Shown: piece after piece, positions 2,433-24,765 of the stretch
Layout: each line of letters opens with the position of its first letter
How positions within the stretch are numbered: position 1 is the stretch's first letter
Assembly: GCA_002342545.1 (NCBI GenBank)
Contig: DDQE01000036.1
Location: forward strand, 1,183-65,182
From: Bacillales bacterium UBA2450
GTDB taxonomy: Bacteria > Bacillota_I > Bacilli_A > RFN20 > CAG-826
Direction: 5' to 3'
DNA: 64,000 nt
Translations under genes and position numbers: made by a program
Notes under the pieces: model-generated
The model's input: the letters and a program-made list of their open reading frames with translations, nothing else
Databases searched by the model: none
Told to the model about the DNA's origin: nothing

Positions 2433-5009
2433 ATGGGCGAAAAAAAGAAATTCCAAATAAATTCCAAACTAGAAAACATGATCAAAGGTTTGACCCTTTG
2501 TTTGATTTCTATCATTTTGATTTTAAATGTTGGTAAAGTTGCTCGTACTTTCGCTTTTGTTCCTTTATATCTATTTGGAGCATCTTATTATATTTTATTT
2601 GCTTTAGTATTCTTATATGGCTTATTCAGAATTATTTTTAGAAGAAAAATTAAACTAAAGGAAGCGAATATCATTTTCTCTGTTCCTTTATTTTTCTTAT
2701 CGATGTTTTTCTTTTTAAGCGTTTATGACACTCCTTCATTTGATAGTGTTGGGAATGCGATTAATTCTTATCACGCCTCTTTAAATGGATATTACACGCC
2801 AGTGTTTTTTAATCCATTTAATTATTATGGTGGATTTAAACATGGTCTACTTGGTCTATCTTTAGGTGCCGGAATTAATAATAACACTGTAGCGATATTC
2901 TTAGGAATCATGCTATTAGTTGTTTCTTTATTAATCTTCTTTATGCCTTTAATTATCTCATGGATCAAAAATGACAAAAAGAAAGAAAAACCATTAAAAC
3001 TAATTCAGGAAGAGGAAAAAGAAGAAAAAGAAGTTGTGGCTATAAAAGAAGAAGAGCCGGCTCCTTCTTTAATTGCTCCTGAACCAGTTGAAGTTAAAAG
3101 AGGATTTGAAAGCGATCAAAGTCCATTCATTAATCAAAATAGTGGTTTCTCTAAGCCAACAATGTCTTTAGATGATAGTCATATGAGCGTTCACTCTCAA
3201 TCTGATTCTCGTGAATTTACTCCTTTAGTGTTCTCTAGACAAAGAAAAGTTGAAGTTATGAGCGCACCTATTAGTGAGCCTATTTCTACTAAAGTAGAAA
3301 TTGAACCAATTCAAGAAGAAACCTTAGAAGAACAGGTGGAAGTAGAGAACTTAATTGAAACTAGACCAGAAGTCGTTAATGAAGTAATCGAAGAAAAACC
3401 GCAAATTGATGAATCTTTAGTAAGAGCTCAACCAATTTTCTTAAACGAAGTTGAAAAAGAAGTAGCTCCTATAGAAAAGCCTCTTCCAATTATTGAAGAA
3501 CCTAAGAAAAAAGAACCAATTAACTGGGTTCCACCTTCTACTGATTTATTAATGACTTATGAAAATGACGATGCGAACGAATTAAATAATCAAGTCGCCG
3601 CAAATAGAGTAGAGGCCATTAACAATATTTTAGCTAACTTTAGAGTTGGAGCACATTGTACTGGCTATAAGATTGGTCCTAGCGTTACTCGTTATAACAT
3701 TGAATATGAACCAAACGTCACTATGAAATCTGTAGAGAAATTAGTAAGTGATATCTCTATGAGATTAGGTGGAGTAAGAACTAGATTTACTCCAATTGTC
3801 AGTGGAGAATCCTTCTCTGGCTTAGAAGCTCCTAACGCGAAAATCACTACAGTTAGTTTTAAAGAAGTGGTTGAAGCTCTTCCTGATGCCAAAAAACATC
3901 CCTTATCGGTTGGCTTTGGTAAGAATTTATCTGGCACAGTGATTTACGCTGATTTTAATAAATTTCCACATATTTTAGTTGCTGGTACCACTGGAAGTGG
4001 TAAATCTATTTTCATTCACTCGATTATCGCTTCTTTAATTATGAGAGCCTCACCTGATTTACTTAGAATCGTTTTAGTCGATCCAAAGATGGTGGAAATG
4101 TCTAAATATAAAGACATGCCTCATTTATTATGTCCAATTATTACTGAACCAGATAAAGCTAAAGTAATGCTTACTAAATTAGTCGATGAAATGAATCACC
4201 GTTATCAAATCTTTGCGGAAAACGGTATGGTTAGTGAAATTGACCAATATAACGAATGGGCTAGTGAAAACGGAAAAGAATTAATGCCGTTCATCGTTGT
4301 TGTTTTAGATGAATACGCTGATTTAGTGGATCGCTGTAAAGATATTGGTCTACCAGTAGTTTCTATTGCTCAAAAAGCTCGTGCTTGTGGAATTCATTTA
4401 TTAATTTCCACTCAAAGACCATCCACAAATATTATTACTGGTGTTATTAAAGGTAATTTACCAACTCACGTTGCTTTAAGAACTGCAAGCTATACTGACT
4501 CTATGACTATTATCGGAGAAGGTGGAGCAGAGCAGTTATTAGGTAAAGGCGATATGTTAGTGGAATCTCCAGTTGTATCTACTGAAGAAAAAGTAAGATT
4601 ACAAGGCTGCTTTGTACAAAATAAAGAAATACTTCGCGTTGTCGCCTATTTAAAAGAACATTATGAAACTAATTATGATCCTAACTTCTTAGATTTAGTG
4701 GATCATTCTAAAGAAGCAGGTAAACAATTAGTGGCTTCTGGAGAAGTACAAAAAGAGGCTGATGAAGCCGAAGAAATGAAGTATCAATCCGTTAAGGATT
4801 GGGTTTTAACTCAAAAATTTGTCTCGATGAGTAAGATTCAAAGAGAATGTATGGTGGGCTTTAATAGAGCTGGTAAATTCTTTAAACGTTTACAAATGGA
4901 AGGAATTGTTTCTACAGAAGTAGACGGCAACACCAAAGGATGCGCAGTTATTGGTGCCCCTAGCGATGATAATGAATATATTCCTAGTAGTGAGGAACTA
5001 ATTGGTTAA
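2433..5009 (+). CDS. ftsK: DNA translocase FtsK/SpoIIIE
   Basis: N-terminal TM helices, an E/P/V-rich linker, Walker A GTTGSGKS, a VVLDEYADL Walker B-like motif and a C-terminal gamma wHTH. Start moved to ATG 2433 (MGEKKK), which lies 7 nt after TATAAT at 2420-2425. Confidence 0.85.
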   Translation: MGEKKKFQINSKLENMIKGLTLCLISIILILNVGKVARTFAFVPLYLFGASYYILFALVFLYGLFRIIFRRKIKLKEANIIFSVPLFFLSMFFFLSVYDTPSFDSVGNAINSYHASLNGYYTPVFFNPFNYYGGFKHGLLGLSLGAGINNNTVAIFLGIMLLVVSLLIFFMPLIISWIKNDKKKEKPLKLIQEEEKEEKEVVAIKEEEPAPSLIAPEPVEVKRGFESDQSPFINQNSGFSKPTMSLDDSHMSVHSQSDSREFTPLVFSRQRKVEVMSAPISEPISTKVEIEPIQEETLEEQVEVENLIETRPEVVNEVIEEKPQIDESLVRAQPIFLNEVEKEVAPIEKPLPIIEEPKKKEPINWVPPSTDLLMTYENDDANELNNQVAANRVEAINNILANFRVGAHCTGYKIGPSVTRYNIEYEPNVTMKSVEKLVSDISMRLGGVRTRFTPIVSGESFSGLEAPNAKITTVSFKEVVEALPDAKKHPLSVGFGKNLSGTVIYADFNKFPHILVAGTTGSGKSIFIHSIIASLIMRASPDLLRIVLVDPKMVEMSKYKDMPHLLCPIITEPDKAKVMLTKLVDEMNHRYQIFAENGMVSEIDQYNEWASENGKELMPFIVVVLDEYADLVDRCKDIGLPVVSIAQKARACGIHLLISTQRPSTNIITGVIKGNLPTHVALRTASYTDSMTIIGEGGAEQLLGKGDMLVESPVVSTEEKVRLQGCFVQNKEILRVVAYLKEHYETNYDPNFLDLVDHSKEAGKQLVASGEVQKEADEAEEMKYQSVKDWVLTQKFVSMSKIQRECMVGFNRAGKFFKRLQMEGIVSTEVDGNTKGCAVIGAPSDDNEYIPSSEELIG

Positions 5010-5011
5010 TT

Positions 5012-7078
5012 ATGGATTATGGTTTAATAAACGCTGAACTCATTAATAAAAATAGTTTAGCAATCTTATATTATGGAGAATCTAGTGACATTAATGATAT
5101 TAATTTCAAATTAGAAGTTAATGGCACTAGCTATCCTTTAAGAATTAATAGATTTTCTAGAAGTGATAAATTATTTAGAATTGAAGCTAGTAGTGACGTT
5201 GATATTATTTTAGGTAACGTTAATAACGTTAAAACTAATGTTGGTGATGAAATTAGCTTAGATTATCGTAGCTACGTTACTAGTAAAGAATTTGATGAAC
5301 TATATTGTCCAATTGATGAAGAATTTGGAGCATTCTATTTTAAAGAAGAAACAGTCTTTAAATTCTGGAGTCCAATTAGTGATAAAGTGTTCCTAAAATT
5401 AGAAAAAAGCGATAATAACTTTGTTCTTTTACCAATGAAAAGAAAAGAAAAAGGTGTTTATAAATTAACGGTTAAAGGTGACCTATTTAACAAAAAGTAT
5501 AACTATGTTATATATCAAAGTGGCACTAGTAAAGAAATTAGAGATCCATATGGTATAGGAACTTCCTTAAATTCTAAATATTCTGCGGTTATTGATTTAT
5601 CCGCTTTAAATGTCATTGCTAAAGAAAAACCTAAATCTATTATTAATAAAGCTAACGAGGCTATTATTTATGAAATGGATATTAGAGACTTTACCGAAGC
5701 AGACAAGAACAATGAAAGTGCTGGAAAATATCTAGGTGTTTTAAATAAGATTGACTATTTAAAGAATTTAGGAGTCACTCACGTTCAACTTCTTCCAGTT
5801 CATGATTTCTTTGGAGTGGATGATATTGAAGTTGACCATTATAACTGGGGATATAATCCAACTAGCTATTTCTCTTTAGAAGGAAGTTATTCTAATTATC
5901 CAGAAGATCCTTTAGCGAGATTATTAGAATTTAAAAAGTTAGTTGCCGAATTACATAAAAATGATATAAGAGTTATTCTTGATGTGGTTTACAACCACAT
6001 TTACGAATATCAAAATAGTGATTTCCATAAGAATTTACCAAATTATTACTTTAGAAGACTTGGCAAAAAAATCTCTGAAGGTAGTGGATGTGGTAACGAT
6101 ATTGCTAGCGAAAGAAGCATGGTCAGAAAGCATATTTTAGATTCCTTAAAATATTTCACTGAAACATTTGATTTAGATGGATATCGTTTTGATTTACTTG
6201 GCTTAATTGATTTAGAAACTGCTAAAGAGGCTATTAAGGTTGTGAAATCTATTAAACCTGACGCTTTGATGTATGGAGAAGGTTGGGATATGATGACTGG
6301 CTTATCTAAAGATAAGAAGTGTTGTAGCGATAACGCGCATCAAATTCCAGAGATGGGATTCTTTAATGATCAATTCCGTGATGTCATTAAAGGTGGGACC
6401 TTTGATAAATATTCCAAAGGCTTCATCATGAATGAATTTTATAAAGATGATTTAAACAATGTTTTATGTGCTTGCTTATTAAAGAATCGATATGATAATG
6501 CGTCTCAATCTATTAACTATGTTGAGTGTCATGATAATCAAACTTTATTTGATAAAATTTCTTACTTCTCCGATAACGATGAACTTAACCTTCAAAGAGT
6601 TAAATTTGCTAATGCCATGACTTTACTTTCTGTTGGCGTTCCATTTATCCATATGGGCCAAGAAATTGGCTTATCAAAATGTATGCTTGATAATACTTAT
6701 AACGTTCCAAAAGTGAATAATATGGACTGGGATTTAGTGGAATCGCGTCATGAAATGGTCAAATTTATGAAAGAGTTAATTAAAGTCAGAAAAACTCTTC
6801 CGTTATTTAAAGCTAATTCCGCTAGCGAGTTAGAAAATGTTTATATTGATTATTTAGATAATGGGCTAGTAACTATTACCGTTACTGAAGAAAAATTATT
6901 ATTACCTGGCTTTAAAGAAGGCTTAATTATCATCAATCCAAGCGAGGAAGTAAAAACTTTAGAATTAAAAGATTATTATCAAGTATTCTTTGGCTGTAAC
7001 GGCATTGTAGAAGATGAATCCTATGCTAAAAATTTCACTTCTGCAGATTTATCGGTATCTATTTTAGGATTAAAATAA
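5012..7078 (+). CDS. pulA: Type I pullulanase / debranching enzyme (GH13), with no signal peptide
   Basis: GH13 motifs DVVYNH, GYRFDLLG, GEGWD and ECHDN, plus the pullulanase YNWGYNP motif. Confidence 0.8.
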   Translation: MDYGLINAELINKNSLAILYYGESSDINDINFKLEVNGTSYPLRINRFSRSDKLFRIEASSDVDIILGNVNNVKTNVGDEISLDYRSYVTSKEFDELYCPIDEEFGAFYFKEETVFKFWSPISDKVFLKLEKSDNNFVLLPMKRKEKGVYKLTVKGDLFNKKYNYVIYQSGTSKEIRDPYGIGTSLNSKYSAVIDLSALNVIAKEKPKSIINKANEAIIYEMDIRDFTEADKNNESAGKYLGVLNKIDYLKNLGVTHVQLLPVHDFFGVDDIEVDHYNWGYNPTSYFSLEGSYSNYPEDPLARLLEFKKLVAELHKNDIRVILDVVYNHIYEYQNSDFHKNLPNYYFRRLGKKISEGSGCGNDIASERSMVRKHILDSLKYFTETFDLDGYRFDLLGLIDLETAKEAIKVVKSIKPDALMYGEGWDMMTGLSKDKKCCSDNAHQIPEMGFFNDQFRDVIKGGTFDKYSKGFIMNEFYKDDLNNVLCACLLKNRYDNASQSINYVECHDNQTLFDKISYFSDNDELNLQRVKFANAMTLLSVGVPFIHMGQEIGLSKCMLDNTYNVPKVNNMDWDLVESRHEMVKFMKELIKVRKTLPLFKANSASELENVYIDYLDNGLVTITVTEEKLLLPGFKEGLIIINPSEEVKTLELKDYYQVFFGCNGIVEDESYAKNFTSADLSVSILGLK

Positions 7079-20129: not shown

Positions 20130-20201
20130 TGCCCGATTTATTCTATTAATATTGTATCGAATTGTATTTTTTTGTATAATTTTGTTGAAAGGAAGAAAAG
20201 T

Positions 20202-20570
20202 ATGATCAAATGGTTTAATGTCAAAGACCGGAATGGCGTTGCTTCTTTAAATATAAATAGCATCGTTTTAAATACAACCGCTATGTATCCTTTTGATAGC
20301 GCGTATCGAGTGCAAGTGGGGATTGAAGATAAAAAAATTATTGTTAAGCCTCTAACAAAAGATGTAGTGGATTCTGGAATATTAGATGAATGTTGTTTAT
20401 TAAAATTAGAGATTCATAAGAGTTTTTCAAGAATTTCTTCAACTCAATTGATGAATCAAATTGCAGATGAATTATCGATCAAATTTGATAAAAAGCCGAT
20501 TAGATTTATTTCAAGTTGGGATAGCGTTAATAACTATTTGATAATTGATACTTCAAAGGAGGCTAATTGA
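20202..20570 (+). CDS. Hypothetical protein, first gene of the NfeD/SPFH operon
   Basis: ATG 20202 follows gaaaggaag. The track start at 20172 sits inside the TATAAT promoter box. No family recognised. Confidence 0.45.
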   Translation: MIKWFNVKDRNGVASLNINSIVLNTTAMYPFDSAYRVQVGIEDKKIIVKPLTKDVVDSGILDECCLLKLEIHKSFSRISSTQLMNQIADELSIKFDKKPIRFISSWDSVNNYLIIDTSKEAN

Positions 20571-20572
20571 TT

Positions 20573-21016
20573 ATGGAACAATATATGTGGATTATCTGGC
20601 TATCATTATTCGTTTTGATGATTATTATTGAAGCAAGTGGGCCAGCATTAATCTCAATTTGGTTTGCTTTTGGAGCATTAATATCATTAATCGTTTCAGT
20701 TATTCCTGGAGCGCCTTGGTGGTCAGAATTAATTATCTTTATCGTGATATCTATCTCCACCTTATTAGCGTTAAGACCAATATTTAAGAAGTATCTTAAA
20801 CGGAACACTGTTAGAACTAATATTGATAGCTTTATTGGTAAAAAAGGATATGTAATTGAAGATATTTCATTTCTTCGCCCAGGAGCTATTAAAATTGGAG
20901 ATATTAGTTGGACTGCGATACCAGCAAACGAAAAAGAAACAATCAAGGAAGATGAAATAGTTGAAGTAGTCTCCTTAAACGGAAACAAAGTTATTGTTAA
21001 GAAAGTCGAGGATTAA
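20573..21016 (+). CDS. NfeD-family membrane protein
   Basis: N-terminal TM helices plus a C-terminal OB-like domain, immediately upstream of the SPFH gene. AGGAGG lies 10 nt upstream. TTG 20567 is an alternative start. Confidence 0.7.
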   Translation: MEQYMWIIWLSLFVLMIIIEASGPALISIWFAFGALISLIVSVIPGAPWWSELIIFIVISISTLLALRPIFKKYLKRNTVRTNIDSFIGKKGYVIEDISFLRPGAIKIGDISWTAIPANEKETIKEDEIVEVVSLNGNKVIVKKVED

Positions 21017-21019
21017 AAT

Positions 21020-21946
21020 ATGATTGCGTTAATTGTTATCTTATCTATCTTAGGAGCGATTTTATTAATTGTTATTCTCAGCTCCATTAAAATTGTCAAA
21101 CAAACAGAAAAAGTGATCGTTGAAAGATTAGGTGCATATCGTACCACTTGGAATGTGGGTATTCATATGTTACTTCCATTTTTTGATCGTGTAGCGTTGC
21201 GTGTTTCAATGAAGGAACAAGTTAAGGATTTTGAACCACAATCAGTTATTACAAAAGATAATGTTACAATGGAAATTGATACGGTTGTCTTCTTTGTAGT
21301 TACAGATGCAAAATTATATGCTTATGGTGTAGAAGATCCTCTTAGTGCTATTAGTTATTTAAGTGCTACAACATTAAGAAACATTATTGGAGAACTTGCC
21401 CTTGATGAATGTTTGACTTCTAGAGAAATCATTAATGAAAAAATGAGAAAGATTCTTGATGAAGCAACTGATCCTTGGGGTATTAAAGTTAATCGTGTTG
21501 AAGTTAAAAATATTCTTCCACCAAAAGATATACGCGAAGCAATGGAAAAGCAAATGCGTGCTGAACGTGAAAAAAGAGAAAAAATACTTCTTGCTGAAGG
21601 TGAAAAACAATCCGCTATTTTAGTGGCTGAAGGCGAAAAACAATCTGCAATTTTAAAAGCTGAAGCTGATAAACAAATGACGATTCTACGTGCTGAGGGT
21701 GAAGCTGAAAGTTTAAGACAAGTCAAACAAGCTGAAGCAGACTCCATTAAAATGGTCAAACAAGCTGAAGCAGAAGGCTTGAAACTAATTAACGAATCTA
21801 AACCAAGTCAAGAAGCTTTACAACTAAGATACTACGAAGCCTTAACCAAAGTTGCAGACGGACAATCTACAAAAATCTTCCTACCAAGTGACGGACTAAA
21901 GATTGGTTCAATTGCTTCTATTGCTAAAGAAGTAAGTAAAGATTAA
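21020..21946 (+). CDS. SPFH/band-7 (stomatin/prohibitin-like) protein
   Basis: N-terminal TM helix, an SPFH core and an A/E/K-rich coiled coil with duplicated AEGEKQSAIL. Confidence 0.85.
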   Translation: MIALIVILSILGAILLIVILSSIKIVKQTEKVIVERLGAYRTTWNVGIHMLLPFFDRVALRVSMKEQVKDFEPQSVITKDNVTMEIDTVVFFVVTDAKLYAYGVEDPLSAISYLSATTLRNIIGELALDECLTSREIINEKMRKILDEATDPWGIKVNRVEVKNILPPKDIREAMEKQMRAEREKREKILLAEGEKQSAILVAEGEKQSAILKAEADKQMTILRAEGEAESLRQVKQAEADSIKMVKQAEAEGLKLINESKPSQEALQLRYYEALTKVADGQSTKIFLPSDGLKIGSIASIAKEVSKD

Positions 21947-21960
21947 TTATTAAATCATAT

Positions 21961-21986
21961 AACGCTCCTTGCGAGCGTTTTTCTTT
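21961..21986 (+). terminator. Rho-independent terminator
   Basis: AACGCTC-cttgc-GAGCGTT followed by a T-run. Confidence 0.75.
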
Positions 21987-22080
21987 TATATTTTTTTGAT
22001 TATCCCAAATATGTTTTAATAAAAAAGATTGTCTTTTAGTTTTGACTAATTATAATTGTAGCACTAGGAGGATGTAAGAC

Positions 22081-22761
22081 ATGAGTAATACAAGAAACAA
22101 GAAAATCATCTTATTAGCTTCTACAGGTCTAGTCACCTTATCAACCATGGCAGTTGTCTTATTAGGACAAAATGATGTGGAACTTATGCCATCAAAAGCG
22201 GCTGCTACTCCAGGAAGAGTAGTTACCGTTAATAAAGACAATCGTATCTTAAATTATTATGATGACGGAAACCAAAATTATGGTGGTGCAATTTTTCTAT
22301 TGGATGATAAATTAGCCTATGGCTATGTTGATGCTTTACAAAGCCAAAAAGACGTACATCAAAATAAAAATAATTGCGTTATTTGCTTATGGGGCGATTA
22401 TAATGCCGGATTTGGGTGTGCTTTCTATGTTAACATTGAAAGATTTTACAATGATGATGTATATTCTTTAGATGGACAACATGGAATTGATGTAGTTCCT
22501 TTTAGACATCTCACTGGAATAGATTTTACACTAGAAAAAGGAAGCGATCGTCTAACTACTTTAAGAGGTAAACATCCAGATCATACAACCGGAACAATGA
22601 CAACGATTGCGGATACAAACGATTATATGAAATATCATTGGACTCCTCAAGGCGGTTATCTTGATAGCGATTCAAATGCTTATTTCGAGCCAGACGAACC
22701 ATTCGGAACTGAACATAAAGCCTTATGGATCACAGAAATGACTTTCTATTACGATTGTTAA
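22081..22761 (+). CDS. Hypothetical secreted or membrane-anchored protein
   Basis: aggagg SD and an N-terminal hydrophobic signal/anchor (KKIILLASTGLVTLSTMAVVLLG). No family recognised. Confidence 0.5.
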   Translation: MSNTRNKKIILLASTGLVTLSTMAVVLLGQNDVELMPSKAAATPGRVVTVNKDNRILNYYDDGNQNYGGAIFLLDDKLAYGYVDALQSQKDVHQNKNNCVICLWGDYNAGFGCAFYVNIERFYNDDVYSLDGQHGIDVVPFRHLTGIDFTLEKGSDRLTTLRGKHPDHTTGTMTTIADTNDYMKYHWTPQGGYLDSDSNAYFEPDEPFGTEHKALWITEMTFYYDC

Positions 22762-22781: not shown

Positions 22782-22808
22782 AACGCTCCTCGTGAGCGTT
22801 TTTTTTCT
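22782..22808 (+). terminator. Rho-independent terminator, near-duplicate of the one at 21961
   Basis: AACGCTC-ctcgt-GAGCGTT followed by a T-run. Confidence 0.75.
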
Positions 22809-22822
22809 TGGAATTGAAAAAC

Positions 22823-22934
22823 TATAATTCGCCAAAAGTTGGTAAAAATAGTCATTTCTGGCGGATTATCCATATAAAAAATGCCTATAATTCGCCAAAA
22901 GTGGCTAAAAATAGTTGATTCTGGCGGATTATCC
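22823..22934 (+). repeat. Upstream 112-bp repeat made of two tandem 49-bp hairpin-capable units (22823-22871 and 22886-22934)
   Basis: Each unit reads TATAATTCGCCA-N26-27-TGGCGGATTATC. Unit 2 is identical over 49 bp to 24439-24487. Confidence 0.85.
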
Positions 22935-22961
22935 TGTTTTAATATATGTGAGGATTTAAAA

Positions 22962-24380
22962 ATGATTATCGGGAGAAAAAATCAAATTAATTTGCTTAAT
23001 CAAACACTTGAAAGCGATAAATCAGAATTTGTAGTAGTGTATGGAAGAAGAAGAGTTGGCAAAACTTTTTTGATTGATGAATTCTTTAATGGCAATTATG
23101 CCTTTTACGCTACTGGAGTTGTTGAAAGAAATCAAAAAAATCAACTAAAAGTATTTGAGCGTTTTTTATTGAAATATGGTCATAATAAGAATAAAACCCC
23201 ATCTGATTGGTACGAAGCTTTTGATTTGCTTATAAATATTCTCGAATCAGATAATGTTAATAGAGAAATTTCTAGCAACAAAAGAATTGTATTTTTGGAT
23301 GAGCTTCCATGGATGGATACTCCTAAATCGAATTTTAAATCTGCGCTTGATTATTTTTGGAATAGTTATGCATCTAAACACAAAGATATAGTGCTGATAG
23401 TCTGTGGATCGGCAACATCTTGGATTTTGAACAATTTATTAAATTCTAAAACCGGTTTTTACAACCGTGTAACTAAAAAGATTTTGTTGGAGCCTTTTAC
23501 ATTAAAAGAAACATATGAATATCTATTATCCAAGGGATTTCAATATACAAAACAAACTGTCATTGATGCTTATATGGTTTTTGGTGGTGTTCCATTTTAT
23601 TTAGAAATGTTGTCTCCAAGATTGTCATTAGATCAAAATATTGAGAAATTATGTTTTGAAGAAAAAGGCGATCTTCACTACGAATTAAATAATTTATTTA
23701 AATCTTTGTTTAAGAATCATAATAAACATTTGGAAGTGATTTTATCATTAAGCAAAGTTAAATCAGGAATAACCAGACAACAAATTATCGAAAAAACAAA
23801 GATAAATGGGCAAACATTGACTGATATTTTACTTGAGTTAGAGCAATGTTCTTTTATAAGAAAGTTCACCAATTTTACAATGCAAAAAAACGGTAGCTTT
23901 TATCAAATAATTGATCCGTTTATTTTGTTTTCTTTAAAATTTGATTTTGCAAATAAAAAGATTTCTTGGCTTTCATTTATAAATTCTTCTGATTATTATT
24001 CCTGGTGCGGATTGGCTTTTGAAAAAGTATGTTTAAATAACATCAATTCAATTAAGATGGCGCTCGGAATCTCTTCAATTGAAACAGAAGTTTTTTCTTG
24101 GAGAAGCAAGAATTCTGAAACCGGTGCACAAATTGACTTGGTTATTGATAGAGGTGATCGAACAATTAATATTTGTGAAATGAAGCATTCGATTTCTGCC
24201 TTTGAAATAGATAAAAAGTACGCTGAAAATCTATTGAATAAGAGAGCTGTTTTTATAAATGAAACTAAAACAAATAAATCTGTGCAAATTTCTTTGTTTA
24301 CTGTTAACGGACTAAAAAAGAACCAGTATTCAAATATAGTCCAAAACAGTTTTGATTGTGACTCTTTATTTTTAATATAA
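22962..24380 (+). CDS. AAA+ ATPase (Arch_ATPase/DUF234-type) with a C-terminal PD-(D/E)xK nuclease-like motif
   Basis: MIIGRKNQI start after a gagga SD, Walker A GRRRVGKT, Walker B IVFLDELPW, and C-terminal IDLVIDRGDRTINICEMK. The track start at 22881 reads through the repeat and is rejected. Confidence 0.75.
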   Translation: MIIGRKNQINLLNQTLESDKSEFVVVYGRRRVGKTFLIDEFFNGNYAFYATGVVERNQKNQLKVFERFLLKYGHNKNKTPSDWYEAFDLLINILESDNVNREISSNKRIVFLDELPWMDTPKSNFKSALDYFWNSYASKHKDIVLIVCGSATSWILNNLLNSKTGFYNRVTKKILLEPFTLKETYEYLLSKGFQYTKQTVIDAYMVFGGVPFYLEMLSPRLSLDQNIEKLCFEEKGDLHYELNNLFKSLFKNHNKHLEVILSLSKVKSGITRQQIIEKTKINGQTLTDILLELEQCSFIRKFTNFTMQKNGSFYQIIDPFILFSLKFDFANKKISWLSFINSSDYYSWCGLAFEKVCLNNINSIKMALGISSIETEVFSWRSKNSETGAQIDLVIDRGDRTINICEMKHSISAFEIDKKYAENLLNKRAVFINETKTNKSVQISLFTVNGLKKNQYSNIVQNSFDCDSLFLI

Positions 24381-24487
24381 TTCGCCAGAAGTACGCGGAA
24401 AATAATAGTTTTGGCGGATTATCTATATAAAAAATGCGTATAATTCGCCAAAAGTGGCTAAAAATAGTTGATTCTGGCGGATTATCC
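24376..24487 (+). repeat. Downstream 112-bp repeat made of two tandem units (24376-24424 and 24439-24487), in direct orientation to 22823-22934
   Basis: Same two-unit architecture and the same ATATAAAAAATGC linker. It overlaps the ATPase stop codon. Confidence 0.85.
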
Positions 24488-24554
24488 GTTTTAAAAATTT
24501 TTAATTGAATAAATTCTTTATTGGATTATAAATTGATAAATGTAATAATATCTA

Positions 24555-24765
24555 GCGAAGGAAAGAAATTTATTTCTTCTATTCTAAGAGAGCGTTACAT
24601 TGGTGCAATAACGTAATAGAGAATAAATGGGCCACTCCTTGTCGTGTGGGTAATGCCACCGTAAAGTTAACGAAATAACTATTAATTAAGTGTCTCTCCC
24701 AATTTGGAGAGGAAATAGGATGGTATCGCGGACTTGTTCGTTCCTAAAAGGAACGTTTTCTTATA
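24555..24765 (+). promoter_or_regulatory. T-box leader controlling alaS
   Basis: AGAGAG bulge at 24587-24592; distal loop GGTGCAA flanked by CGTTA/TAACG; T-box core AAATAGGATGGTATCGCGG at 24713-24731; terminator CGTTCCT-aaa-AGGAACG plus TTTT at 24739-24759. A possible GCC-A specifier at 24631-24634 is tentative. Confidence 0.75.

Follow-up and report, generated by a model that had tools for sequence, protein, structure and literature searches.

PDC-S27 is a candidate single-gene anti-phage system with validation pending, which was predicted from genes that sit inside other defence systems, is described as a fusion of an ATPase with a PD-(D/E)XK nuclease, and is reported to be one of the most abundant of the defence genes predicted in bacteria and archaea (Payne et al., bioRxiv 10.1101/2024.01.29.577857; PMC12988326). 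The family is also counted as PD-(D/E)XK in PMC3424549. The PDC-S27 publications (bioRxiv 10.1101/2024.01.29.577857; PMC12988326) describe the protein alone, with no flanking palindromes or cis-elements, and no description of the palindromes considered here was found in the literature on DUF234, PF01637, COG1672 and PDC-S27. This study concerns a PDC-S27-type gene and the palindromic units, or boxes, around it in a stretch of 64,000 nucleotides from Bacillales bacterium UBA2450 (contig DDQE01000036.1; the whole stretch is referred to as the window, and positions are those of the window unless a locus is named). Boxes of constant geometry were associated with the PDC-S27 gene family, and, as far as sequence comparison can tell, they are best explained as a self-operator on a candidate defence gene, more general than this one locus.

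Palindromic boxes accompany the PDC-S27 gene family

A single gene, coding for the ATPase-nuclease (22962..24380, + strand), lies between direct repeats of 123 nt (22823-22945 and 24376-24498; 85% identity, 1553 bp spacing), each of which holds two copies of a 48-nt imperfect palindrome, TATAATTCGCCA-N24-TGGCGGATTATC. All four copies are on the + strand: U1, the distal upstream box (22823..22870; 48.3 bits, E 1e-8 with the covariance model R1, see below), U2, the gene-proximal box (22886..22933; pattern match and R1), and, on the other side of the gene, U3 (24376..24423; sequence, pattern match and R1) and U4 (24439..24486; pattern match and R1). The linkers, read from the sequence, are A-rich and 15 nt long: CATATAAAAAATGCC between U1 and U2 (22871..22885) and TATATAAAAAATGCG between U3 and U4 (24424..24438). 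U2 and U4 are the same over the 48-nt unit and the next base, and the stop codon TAA of the ATPase (24378-24380) falls within the TATAAT of U3. No shuffled sequence matched the unit pattern (0/100), and the four units alone matched R1 in the 64-kb window at E<=1. Among the 56 window open reading frames (ORFs) of at least 110 aa, there was no transposase, integrase or HUH protein. The initial annotation had described the flanking direct repeats, the identity of U2 and U4 over 49 bp, the overlap of the stop codon with the downstream repeat and the lack of a transposase or integrase in the window, all of which held; its 11-nt arms with a spacer of 26-27 nt were corrected to 12-nt arms with 24 nt between them.

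The longest ORF (22881-24380, 499 aa), which is used by public protein sets, starts from an ATG at 22881 in the U1-U2 linker. Since all homologues start with M-x-I-I-G-R at the position equivalent to 22962, this ATG is a miscalled start, and the true coding sequence, as judged from the homologues and a ribosome-binding site GAGGA (22950..22954, + strand), is that of 472 aa from 22962. The public call P0001 (499 aa, cluster of 50 sequences) carries 27 spurious residues translated from U2, and an exact lookup of the 472-aa protein among public proteins gave no entry because public calls use the 499-aa ORF. The protein matched the PADLOC PDC-S27 profile PDLC04984 (E 3.6e-180) with residues 2-470 against profile positions 4-473 of 474, and Pfam ATPase_2 with an E value of 3e-15, while Pfam DUF234 gave no score at E<=0.001. 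Three motifs on the + strand, invariant across homologues, correspond to the ATPase and nuclease of PDC-S27: Walker A GRRRVGKT (residues 28-35, 23043..23066; invariant in alignments A1 and A2), Walker B D113-E114 in FLDELPW (23298..23303), and the PD-(D/E)XK nuclease core D392...E406-x-K408 (24135..24185).

An AlphaFold2 model (pLDDT 88.8) had four parts: AAA+ domain, helical lid, winged-helix domain (residues ~251-318, 23712..23915, + strand, with a presumed recognition helix at 283-295 and a wing at 299-316) and an alpha/beta C-terminal domain. The top Foldseek match was the Pyrococcus ATPase 2qen, followed by DNA-bound Orc1/Cdc6 (2qby), and further matches were ORC subunits and STAND proteins (Apaf-1, CED-4, plant NLRs and Avs3). 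The chains of 2qby, 1w5t and ORC had E values of 1e-8 to 1e-7 and a probability of 1.00, but TM-scores of only 0.3-0.47, and the family profile found no solved relative among PDB sequences. In terms of this model, the gene product joins a PD-(D/E)XK nuclease to an ATPase of the Orc1/Cdc6/STAND-like type with AAA+ and winged-helix domains; by its profile match the gene counts as a PADLOC PDC-S27 candidate defence gene of full length, to which a candidate anti-phage role may be assigned.

An exact-match scan for the pattern TCGCCARAA-N19-23-TGGCGGATTAT, with one genome per species, found a single locus, equal to this one, in each of the two closest genomes: four units around a 98.5%-identical ATPase in Bacilli bacterium RGIG3320 (L037), and two units in Erysipelotrichaceae RUG11432 (L033). 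At 15 further loci (L018 partly covered), belonging to Bacteroidota (Chitinophaga, Crocinitomicaceae, Vicingaceae, Arachidicoccus, Taibaiella and Fluviicola), Lachnospiraceae and Synergistaceae, a box adjoined an ATPase homologue of 35-53% identity. In Bacteroidota, the start codon usually had a single unit 8-15 nt upstream and the stop codon a single unit 3-7 nt downstream; in L004, with a 78%-identical homologue, the layout of two units on each side was the same as in the window, with conserved arms and different spacers.

Loci were also selected purely by protein similarity (80 metagenome and 59 viral-contig loci, from which duplicates were then removed; homologues of 39-52% identity from Bacillota, Bacteroidota and others). 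A palindrome with at least 11 Watson-Crick pairs and a loop of 6-26 was present within 220 nt upstream of PDC-S27 homologues in 69/81 cases (85%). The same upstream span of other genes in these loci gave 21/92 (23%), and shuffled upstream regions gave 17/282 (6%). Control 220-nt windows of the same loci gave 113/1385 (8%); these were mostly coding, and the other genes' upstream regions took their place as the comparison. Downstream of the homologues, the palindrome was found within 150 nt in 18/83 cases (22%). The homologues with upstream palindromes had one to five of them, of ~48 bp, with arm words varying by lineage (CGCCAAAA, GCTGAAA, CAGCGGTAAG, CGCTACATCT, CCACTGG and GAGAAATC). Within each locus the arm word was confined to the side of the gene, with two exceptions in ~70 loci, and paralogues on one viral contig (L141 and L154) had different units. 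Among the neighbour genes the largest family was present in 6/87 loci. Since the arm words stay beside the gene and no neighbour is conserved, the ATPase is the only constant partner of the box. The structure-aware covariance model R1, made from 32 units of different lineages, found ~70 sites over 465 kb of the protein-selected loci, and all but ~4 of them were close to the ATPase (<=300 nt upstream or <=150 nt downstream). No Rfam family covered the units in the window and 16 related loci, whether gathering or E-value thresholds were applied, and the matches elsewhere in the scanned loci were to a T-box, tRNAs and a group II intron only. Judged from these distributions, the units belong to the gene family and not to the genome; the case of a unit occurring only here, considered in the initial annotation, did not apply, as boxes adjoined homologues across phyla and their presence was polymorphic.

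When units were aligned at the dyad, the two halves agreed at 70-95% of loci from -24 to -7, and were at background inside -6 and outside -25. Three features were conserved across lineages: the A/T block TATAA (-23 to -20), at a constant distance from the dyad, GCC (-16 to -14) and AAA (-12 to -10), the positions between them being variable yet symmetric. Double-sided changes were found at all 18 pairs (134 cells versus 38 in shuffles, with sequences preselected for symmetry). The outer-to-outer length was constant (~46-48 bp) with a variable split between stem and loop, and the centre of the box was A/T-rich. Tandem units had periods of 51-56 bp (n=18), 61-63 bp (n=8) and ~98-116 bp (n=4), together with one pair 25 bp apart, and the two main periods correspond to ~5 or 6 helical turns. 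Mismatches on the coding strand (75 G.T versus 57 A.C) gave no family-wide strand preference, and the orientation of the Bacteroidota units relative to the gene was mixed. In the window, each unit has one T.G position, and U2 folds better as the + strand (-17.0 kcal/mol) than as the - strand (-13.8 kcal/mol), in line with the strand asymmetry initially described. Because of the fixed geometry, the helical phasing, the lack of strand bias and the mixed orientation, the anatomy of the box favours a double-stranded, protein-bound element over a strand-specific hairpin of RNA or single-stranded DNA (ssDNA).

In a group of homologues of ~25% identity, on viral or proviral contigs from IMG/VR (L169-L186), a 50-nt palindrome, ATTATACTCGTAA...TTACGAGTATAAT, was located upstream, at ~-72 from the gene start, and through this subfamily the box habit may extend beyond PDC-S27 proper. 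In L088, the boxes upstream of the ATPase homologue (~2160-2480) form a tandem array of five with a period of exactly 52 nt, and a group II intron (D1-D4 domains; 4979-5260) lies ~1 kb downstream of that homologue.

Promoter overlap and predicted self-binding

The putative promoter of the ATPase gene (22915..22945, + strand) was read from the sequence: a -35-like TTGATT (22915-22920) lies in the spacer of U2, a -10-like TTTAAT/TAATAT is located at 22938-22945, and the right arm of U2 fills the promoter spacer. This layout, TTGATT-17-TTTAAT, is that of a weaker site, unlisted by the consensus promoter scan; L004 has the same arrangement as TTGATT-18-TATAAT. Where the spacer meets the right arm, 11 loci of the Bacteroidota type have TAnnTTTG(GCG), at 14-29 nt upstream of the start codon; TAnnTTTG is the -7 promoter motif of Bacteroidetes. 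At the level of sequence, the core promoter overlaps the gene-proximal box, so that a protein bound to this box would occlude the promoter.

We consider it somewhat probable (roughly 0.55) that the boxes are ~48-bp palindromic double-stranded DNA sites cognate to the PDC-S27-type ATPase-nuclease, which would be bound for autoregulation or assembly. The encoded ATPase would occupy one box or several, in the form of dimers or of phased oligomers; its binding to the gene-proximal box would repress or otherwise control expression of the ATPase itself, and bound boxes would perhaps nucleate assembly of the protein on DNA. The downstream pair after the stop codon, in this lineage, may be an auxiliary site for looping or insulation. 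Host homologous recombination between the direct-repeat pairs would convert units (U2 = U4), delete the gene leaving one pair, and allow cassette exchange. Binding sites for a regulator, the fallback explanation in the initial annotation, match the anatomy best, with the ATPase itself as the probable regulator; we infer both that it is the box-binding protein and that its binding is repressive.

When protein columns were ranked by co-variation with the half-site, seven of the top 20 were in the recognition helix and wing (residues 280-316; 29/272 variable columns, hypergeometric p ~0.002), compared with 2-3 of 20 in controls using gene GC content, spacer bases and column entropy. This co-variation of the winged helix with the half-site is no more than suggestive of self-binding, and several points weigh against the operator reading. 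The co-variation signal is post hoc, as the region was delimited after the model had been seen, and is confounded by phylogeny; winged-helix identity was not higher among proteins sharing the CGCCAAA core (-0.108 versus -0.073), and the presumed recognition helix has no basic character. Positions that vary among lineages remain symmetric, which would fit a cruciform or hairpin just as well. Downstream boxes are tightly placed, 0-33 nt after the stop codon, with no firm regulatory rationale. Direct repeats, including duplications of host sequence, flanked 17/77 genes versus 1/93 controls, which hints at an insertion mechanism beyond an operator. Both the binding of the boxes by the ATPase and the promoter of the window are predictions.

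Recombination at the locus and rival explanations

Related genomes carried filled, scarred and naive forms of this site. The cassette was present in the same context in the window, L001, L002 and L203; L037 had a different upstream gene (for a List_Bact_rpt surface protein), L198 had other downstream genes, and the divergent L004 (ATPase 78% identical) had rubredoxin directly upstream. In L033, whose flanks are 94% identical to the window, the ATPase was gone and one unit pair was kept, in the order: 228-aa gene, terminator, U1-like unit, linker, U2/U4-like unit and alaS leader. In L199, L200 and L202, whose alaS is 85% identical to that of the window, the order was 228-aa gene, terminator and alaS promoter, with no unit found by R1 at E<=1. 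Since this naive site holds no unit, the units come in together with the gene, and the L033 pair is the scar of a deletion; by its sequence it is the exact product expected of recombination between U2 and U4, the latter being the direct-repeat partner for deletion. U4 was the same as U2 in the window but U1-like in L037 and L003, which indicates that units undergo conversion among themselves. In L198, U4 resembles the L004 type and has an L004-type spacer.

The cassette was 98-99% identical among genomes whose alaS and ruvX were 89-96% identical, and was found in several flanking contexts. Transfer limited to the cassette was rejected for the window and L037: identity did not drop at the right border, and the high-identity tract continued into alaS, which would fit ordinary homologous recombination. 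The initial annotation had proposed a recombining cassette and had suggested looking for an empty site with a single repeat. L033, with one unit pair and no gene, is such a site, and together with the naive sites (L199, L200 and L202) and varied contexts it bears out recombination at the population level. The families then proposed (IS200/IS605, REP/PATE and gene-cassette sites) were unsupported: the units are not dispersed, accompany one gene family, are mostly upstream only and lack strand bias, and the window has no HUH or integrase gene.

A self-contained or trans-mobilised cassette, in which the boxes are recombination or cleavage sites that the ATPase-nuclease or a distant recombinase cuts or synapses, so that box-gene-box excises and inserts, appears rather unlikely, although several observations fit it. 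The filled, scarred and naive versions of one site are among them, but L033 needs no more than a deletion of RecA type between U2 and U4, which are identical over 49 bp. The cassette is 98-99% identical where the core flanks are 85-96% identical, and occurs in at least three contexts with breakpoints within ~25 nt of the outer units; on the other hand, the window and L037 stay highly identical beyond the cassette, into alaS, as homologous recombination gives, and there is one locus per genome with no multi-copy spread. Flanking repeats in direct orientation, 18 nt or longer, with a copy <=350 nt upstream and another <=340 nt downstream, were found at 17/77 PDC-S27 genes, compared with 1/93 other genes and 1/127 displaced controls. 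Nine of these 17 were unit-based, and the others were duplicated local sequence, often a terminator; duplicated host sequence was found in L072 (40 nt), L122 (42 nt), L063 (24 nt) and L022 (25 nt), while the flanking repeat of L131 sits among other repeats. Solo units in unrelated intergenic regions (L056 and L015) and a short T-tail duplication at both borders of L004 relative to the naive site, resembling a target-site duplication, are also in favour, in spite of which a downstream box is present in just ~14-28% of homologues versus an upstream box in 85%, often in arrays of 2-5, and the promoter is built into the box. The protein has a nuclease, and PDC genes were discovered through embedding inside other systems, but no recombinase lies within the window. 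A bolder form, in which PDC-S27 is a recombinase-free mobile defence cassette, whose Orc1/Cdc6-like ATPase-nuclease assembles on its own boxes and cuts or synapses them, the unit then being excised and lost or inserted, is speculative and carries a low probability; if true, it would explain PDC-S27 genes embedded in operons and defence systems and the frequent flanking duplications, and such self-mobilisation would be a new mechanism for embedding defence genes.

Recognition by shape, with the palindromes forming cruciforms or hairpins of either strand for the nuclease domain or host factors, is improbable. Many PD-(D/E)XK enzymes cut junctions, and the contiguous symmetry of 14-18 bp through lineage-variable positions, the A/T-rich centre and the negative winged-helix similarity test would agree with such an element, as would the excess of double-sided changes, although in sequences preselected for symmetry; however, TATAA, GCC and AAA at fixed distances, conserved across lineages, point to a read-out of sequence, and neither the helical phasing of tandem units nor a promoter inside the unit has a part in it. 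Hairpins of one strand, in RNA or ssDNA (ends like those of IS200/IS605, attC-like sites, or stabilisers or terminators at the 5' or 3' end of mRNA), are very improbable. In this lineage the G.T of every unit is on the coding strand and the + strand folds better, but the family-wide mismatch counts and the mixed orientation in Bacteroidota disagree; transcription would place U3 and U4 at the mRNA's 3' end, with no intrinsic terminator after the gene, but the units have no U tail, the upstream ones are at or upstream of the promoter, no Rfam family matches, and the window has no HUH or IntI gene. The units are REP-like in their size and palindromic form, and some homologues (L131) lie amid other repeats, but a generic host repeat (REP/BIME-like, MITE-like or a chance site for a host factor) is scarcely probable at all: the exact pattern was found at one locus per matching genome, with only four sites in 64 kb, and the same box follows the gene into other phyla while paralogues in one genome differ.

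Several observations concern solo units and repeats at other loci. A solo unit lies between argB and an M20 peptidase gene in Moheibacter lacus (L056, 5497-5536), and another in Candidatus Colivivens (L015, 5565-5605), with no ATPase detected nearby in either case. Three tandem units upstream of holB (L044, 436-577) are near the left end of that stretch, and their gene may lie outside. In L072, a 40-nt direct repeat (2337-2376 and 3987-4026, 98% identical), which holds the half-box-like TATTATCGCCAAC, brackets the unit, ATPase and terminator, and 2.2 kb downstream a box-like palindrome, TATAATCAGCTAAATC...GATTTGGCTAGATAT (6173-6225), is directly upstream of a different, truncated ORF. Integration at tRNA genes was rejected for the Bacteroidota cassettes, as ARAGORN found tRNAs near only 3/21 loci, and none in L022.

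Locus surroundings and relation to known systems

The cassette lies in a housekeeping region (RNase J, FtsK, MnmA, GreA, ComEC, LepA, the dnaK operon, Era, RecO, DnaG, SigA and IspG/H), which makes up the window and belongs to an uncultured, Bacilli/Erysipelotrichaceae-like bacterium of the gut. The intrinsic terminator of the upstream 226-aa gene (22782..22800, + strand; 7-bp stem and T run) precedes it, and in relatives homology to other contexts breaks ~20 nt downstream of this terminator. The T-box leader of alaS (24544..24748, + strand; Rfam 84 bits, E 3e-18) lies outside the cassette; a default Rfam scan reports no RNA family in the window because this T-box scores below the gathering threshold of 93. 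The best sigma-70-like match of the region, TTGATT-18-TATAAT (24352-24381; 10 of 12), has the TATAAT of U3 as its -10 and its -35 within the last ATPase codons; transcription from it would pass U3 and U4 in the direction of the alaS leader, and the match may be functional or a by-product of coding constraint.

The segment from the rubredoxin gene to the cassette (20172-22761) is a variable spot in comparison with L004, L198, L199, L203 and L205: the window, L033 and L205 have the NfeD/SPFH operon, which L004, L198, L199 and L203 lack, and L199 has a SHOCT gene. Among genomes with ~95% identical fprA and alaS, the upstream 226-aa protein was 54% to 100% identical. In L198 (4095-4420), the cassette is followed by a 337-aa gene and the gene for a List_Bact_rpt surface protein, the same surface gene that is upstream of the cassette in L037; the 3.6-kb insert would either be on different sides of the cassette in L198 and L037, or be bracketed by two cassette copies. 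A 2.7-kb metagenome contig (L003, 1-2753, junction near 1030), with the N-terminus of an N6/N4 DNA methylase in frame with ATPase residues 108-472, followed by U3, U4 and alaS, is probably an assembly chimera.

If the boxes are operators bound by the ATPase itself, a conserved, lineage-specific box overlapping the promoter provides the first concrete handle on the control or recognition by PDC-S27. The box would predict a cognate DNA ligand for each homologue, its differences among lineages would be natural specificity swaps for experiments on binding and regulation, and it would suggest ORC-like engagement of DNA by an immune ATPase. As direct repeats, the boxes account for how quickly the gene is gained and lost within a species complex, and they are also a source of annotation errors: the ORF over-extended by 27 residues and assembly chimeras.

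Among the systems compared, IS200/IS605 and REP/RAYT resemble the present units in their subterminal or extragenic palindromes that form hairpins, and differ in that the locus here has no Y1 HUH gene, identical units at both ends, a single locus and no strand bias. IS200/IS605 was rejected because the ATPase is the only gene between the repeats, with no transposase domain in the 56 window ORFs, and because distinct, strand-specific ends and multiple copies are required, whereas U2 equals U4 and each genome has one locus. Dispersed copies are likewise required of REP/BIME with RAYT, whereas there were four sites in 64 kb and a single locus in L037 and L033 (exact-match scan); MITE/PATE, which calls for terminal inverted repeats, a target-site duplication and multiple copies, was rejected since the locus is single and the units are tandem boxes bearing a promoter. 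Integron attC sites share the imperfect palindrome, conserved ends, variable centre, location at a gene boundary and variable gene presence; unlike them, there is no IntI, attI, Pc or GTTRRRY core here, and the gene has its own promoter. The integron, whose cassettes are promoterless and whose attC sites go with unrelated genes and work on one strand, was also rejected because the window has no integrase, the proximal unit embeds a promoter, and the units occur with this ATPase family only, lacking strand bias. The Xer-dependent pdif modules of Acinetobacter plasmids are comparable in that short palindromes, there recombination sites, box a single gene that brings no recombinase along. They differ in that dif-like sites are laid out as 11-6-11 and accompany genes of many types; the present boxes have no similarity to dif and accompany a single gene family.

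The protein of the window corresponds to PADLOC PDC-S27 in its end-to-end profile match and its ATPase and PD-(D/E)XK architecture. It shares the AAA+, lid and winged-helix fold with archaeal Orc1/Cdc6 (2qby), a fold assignment made by Foldseek with TM-scores of only 0.3-0.47. In Orc1/Cdc6, the gene is next to ORB elements, inverted repeats flanking an A/T-rich spacer, as with the boxes here; unlike Orc1/Cdc6, the window protein has a nuclease domain, the boxes overlap the gene promoter in a housekeeping region, nothing here suggests replication initiation, and binding of the boxes is a prediction. Autoregulatory palindromic operators of defence genes are known as the C-protein boxes of restriction-modification systems and for BrxR-type regulators. 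The present boxes are similar to these in that the palindrome lies over the promoter of a potentially toxic nuclease gene and travels with the gene. They differ in that there is no separate small regulator, so that the effector itself would have to bind, and in being much longer (~48 bp), often tandem and phased, and sometimes downstream. The general feature of an autoregulatory operator, a palindrome over the core promoter, was found at putative promoters of both kinds: TAnnTTTG in 11 loci, and TTGATT/TATAAT in L004.

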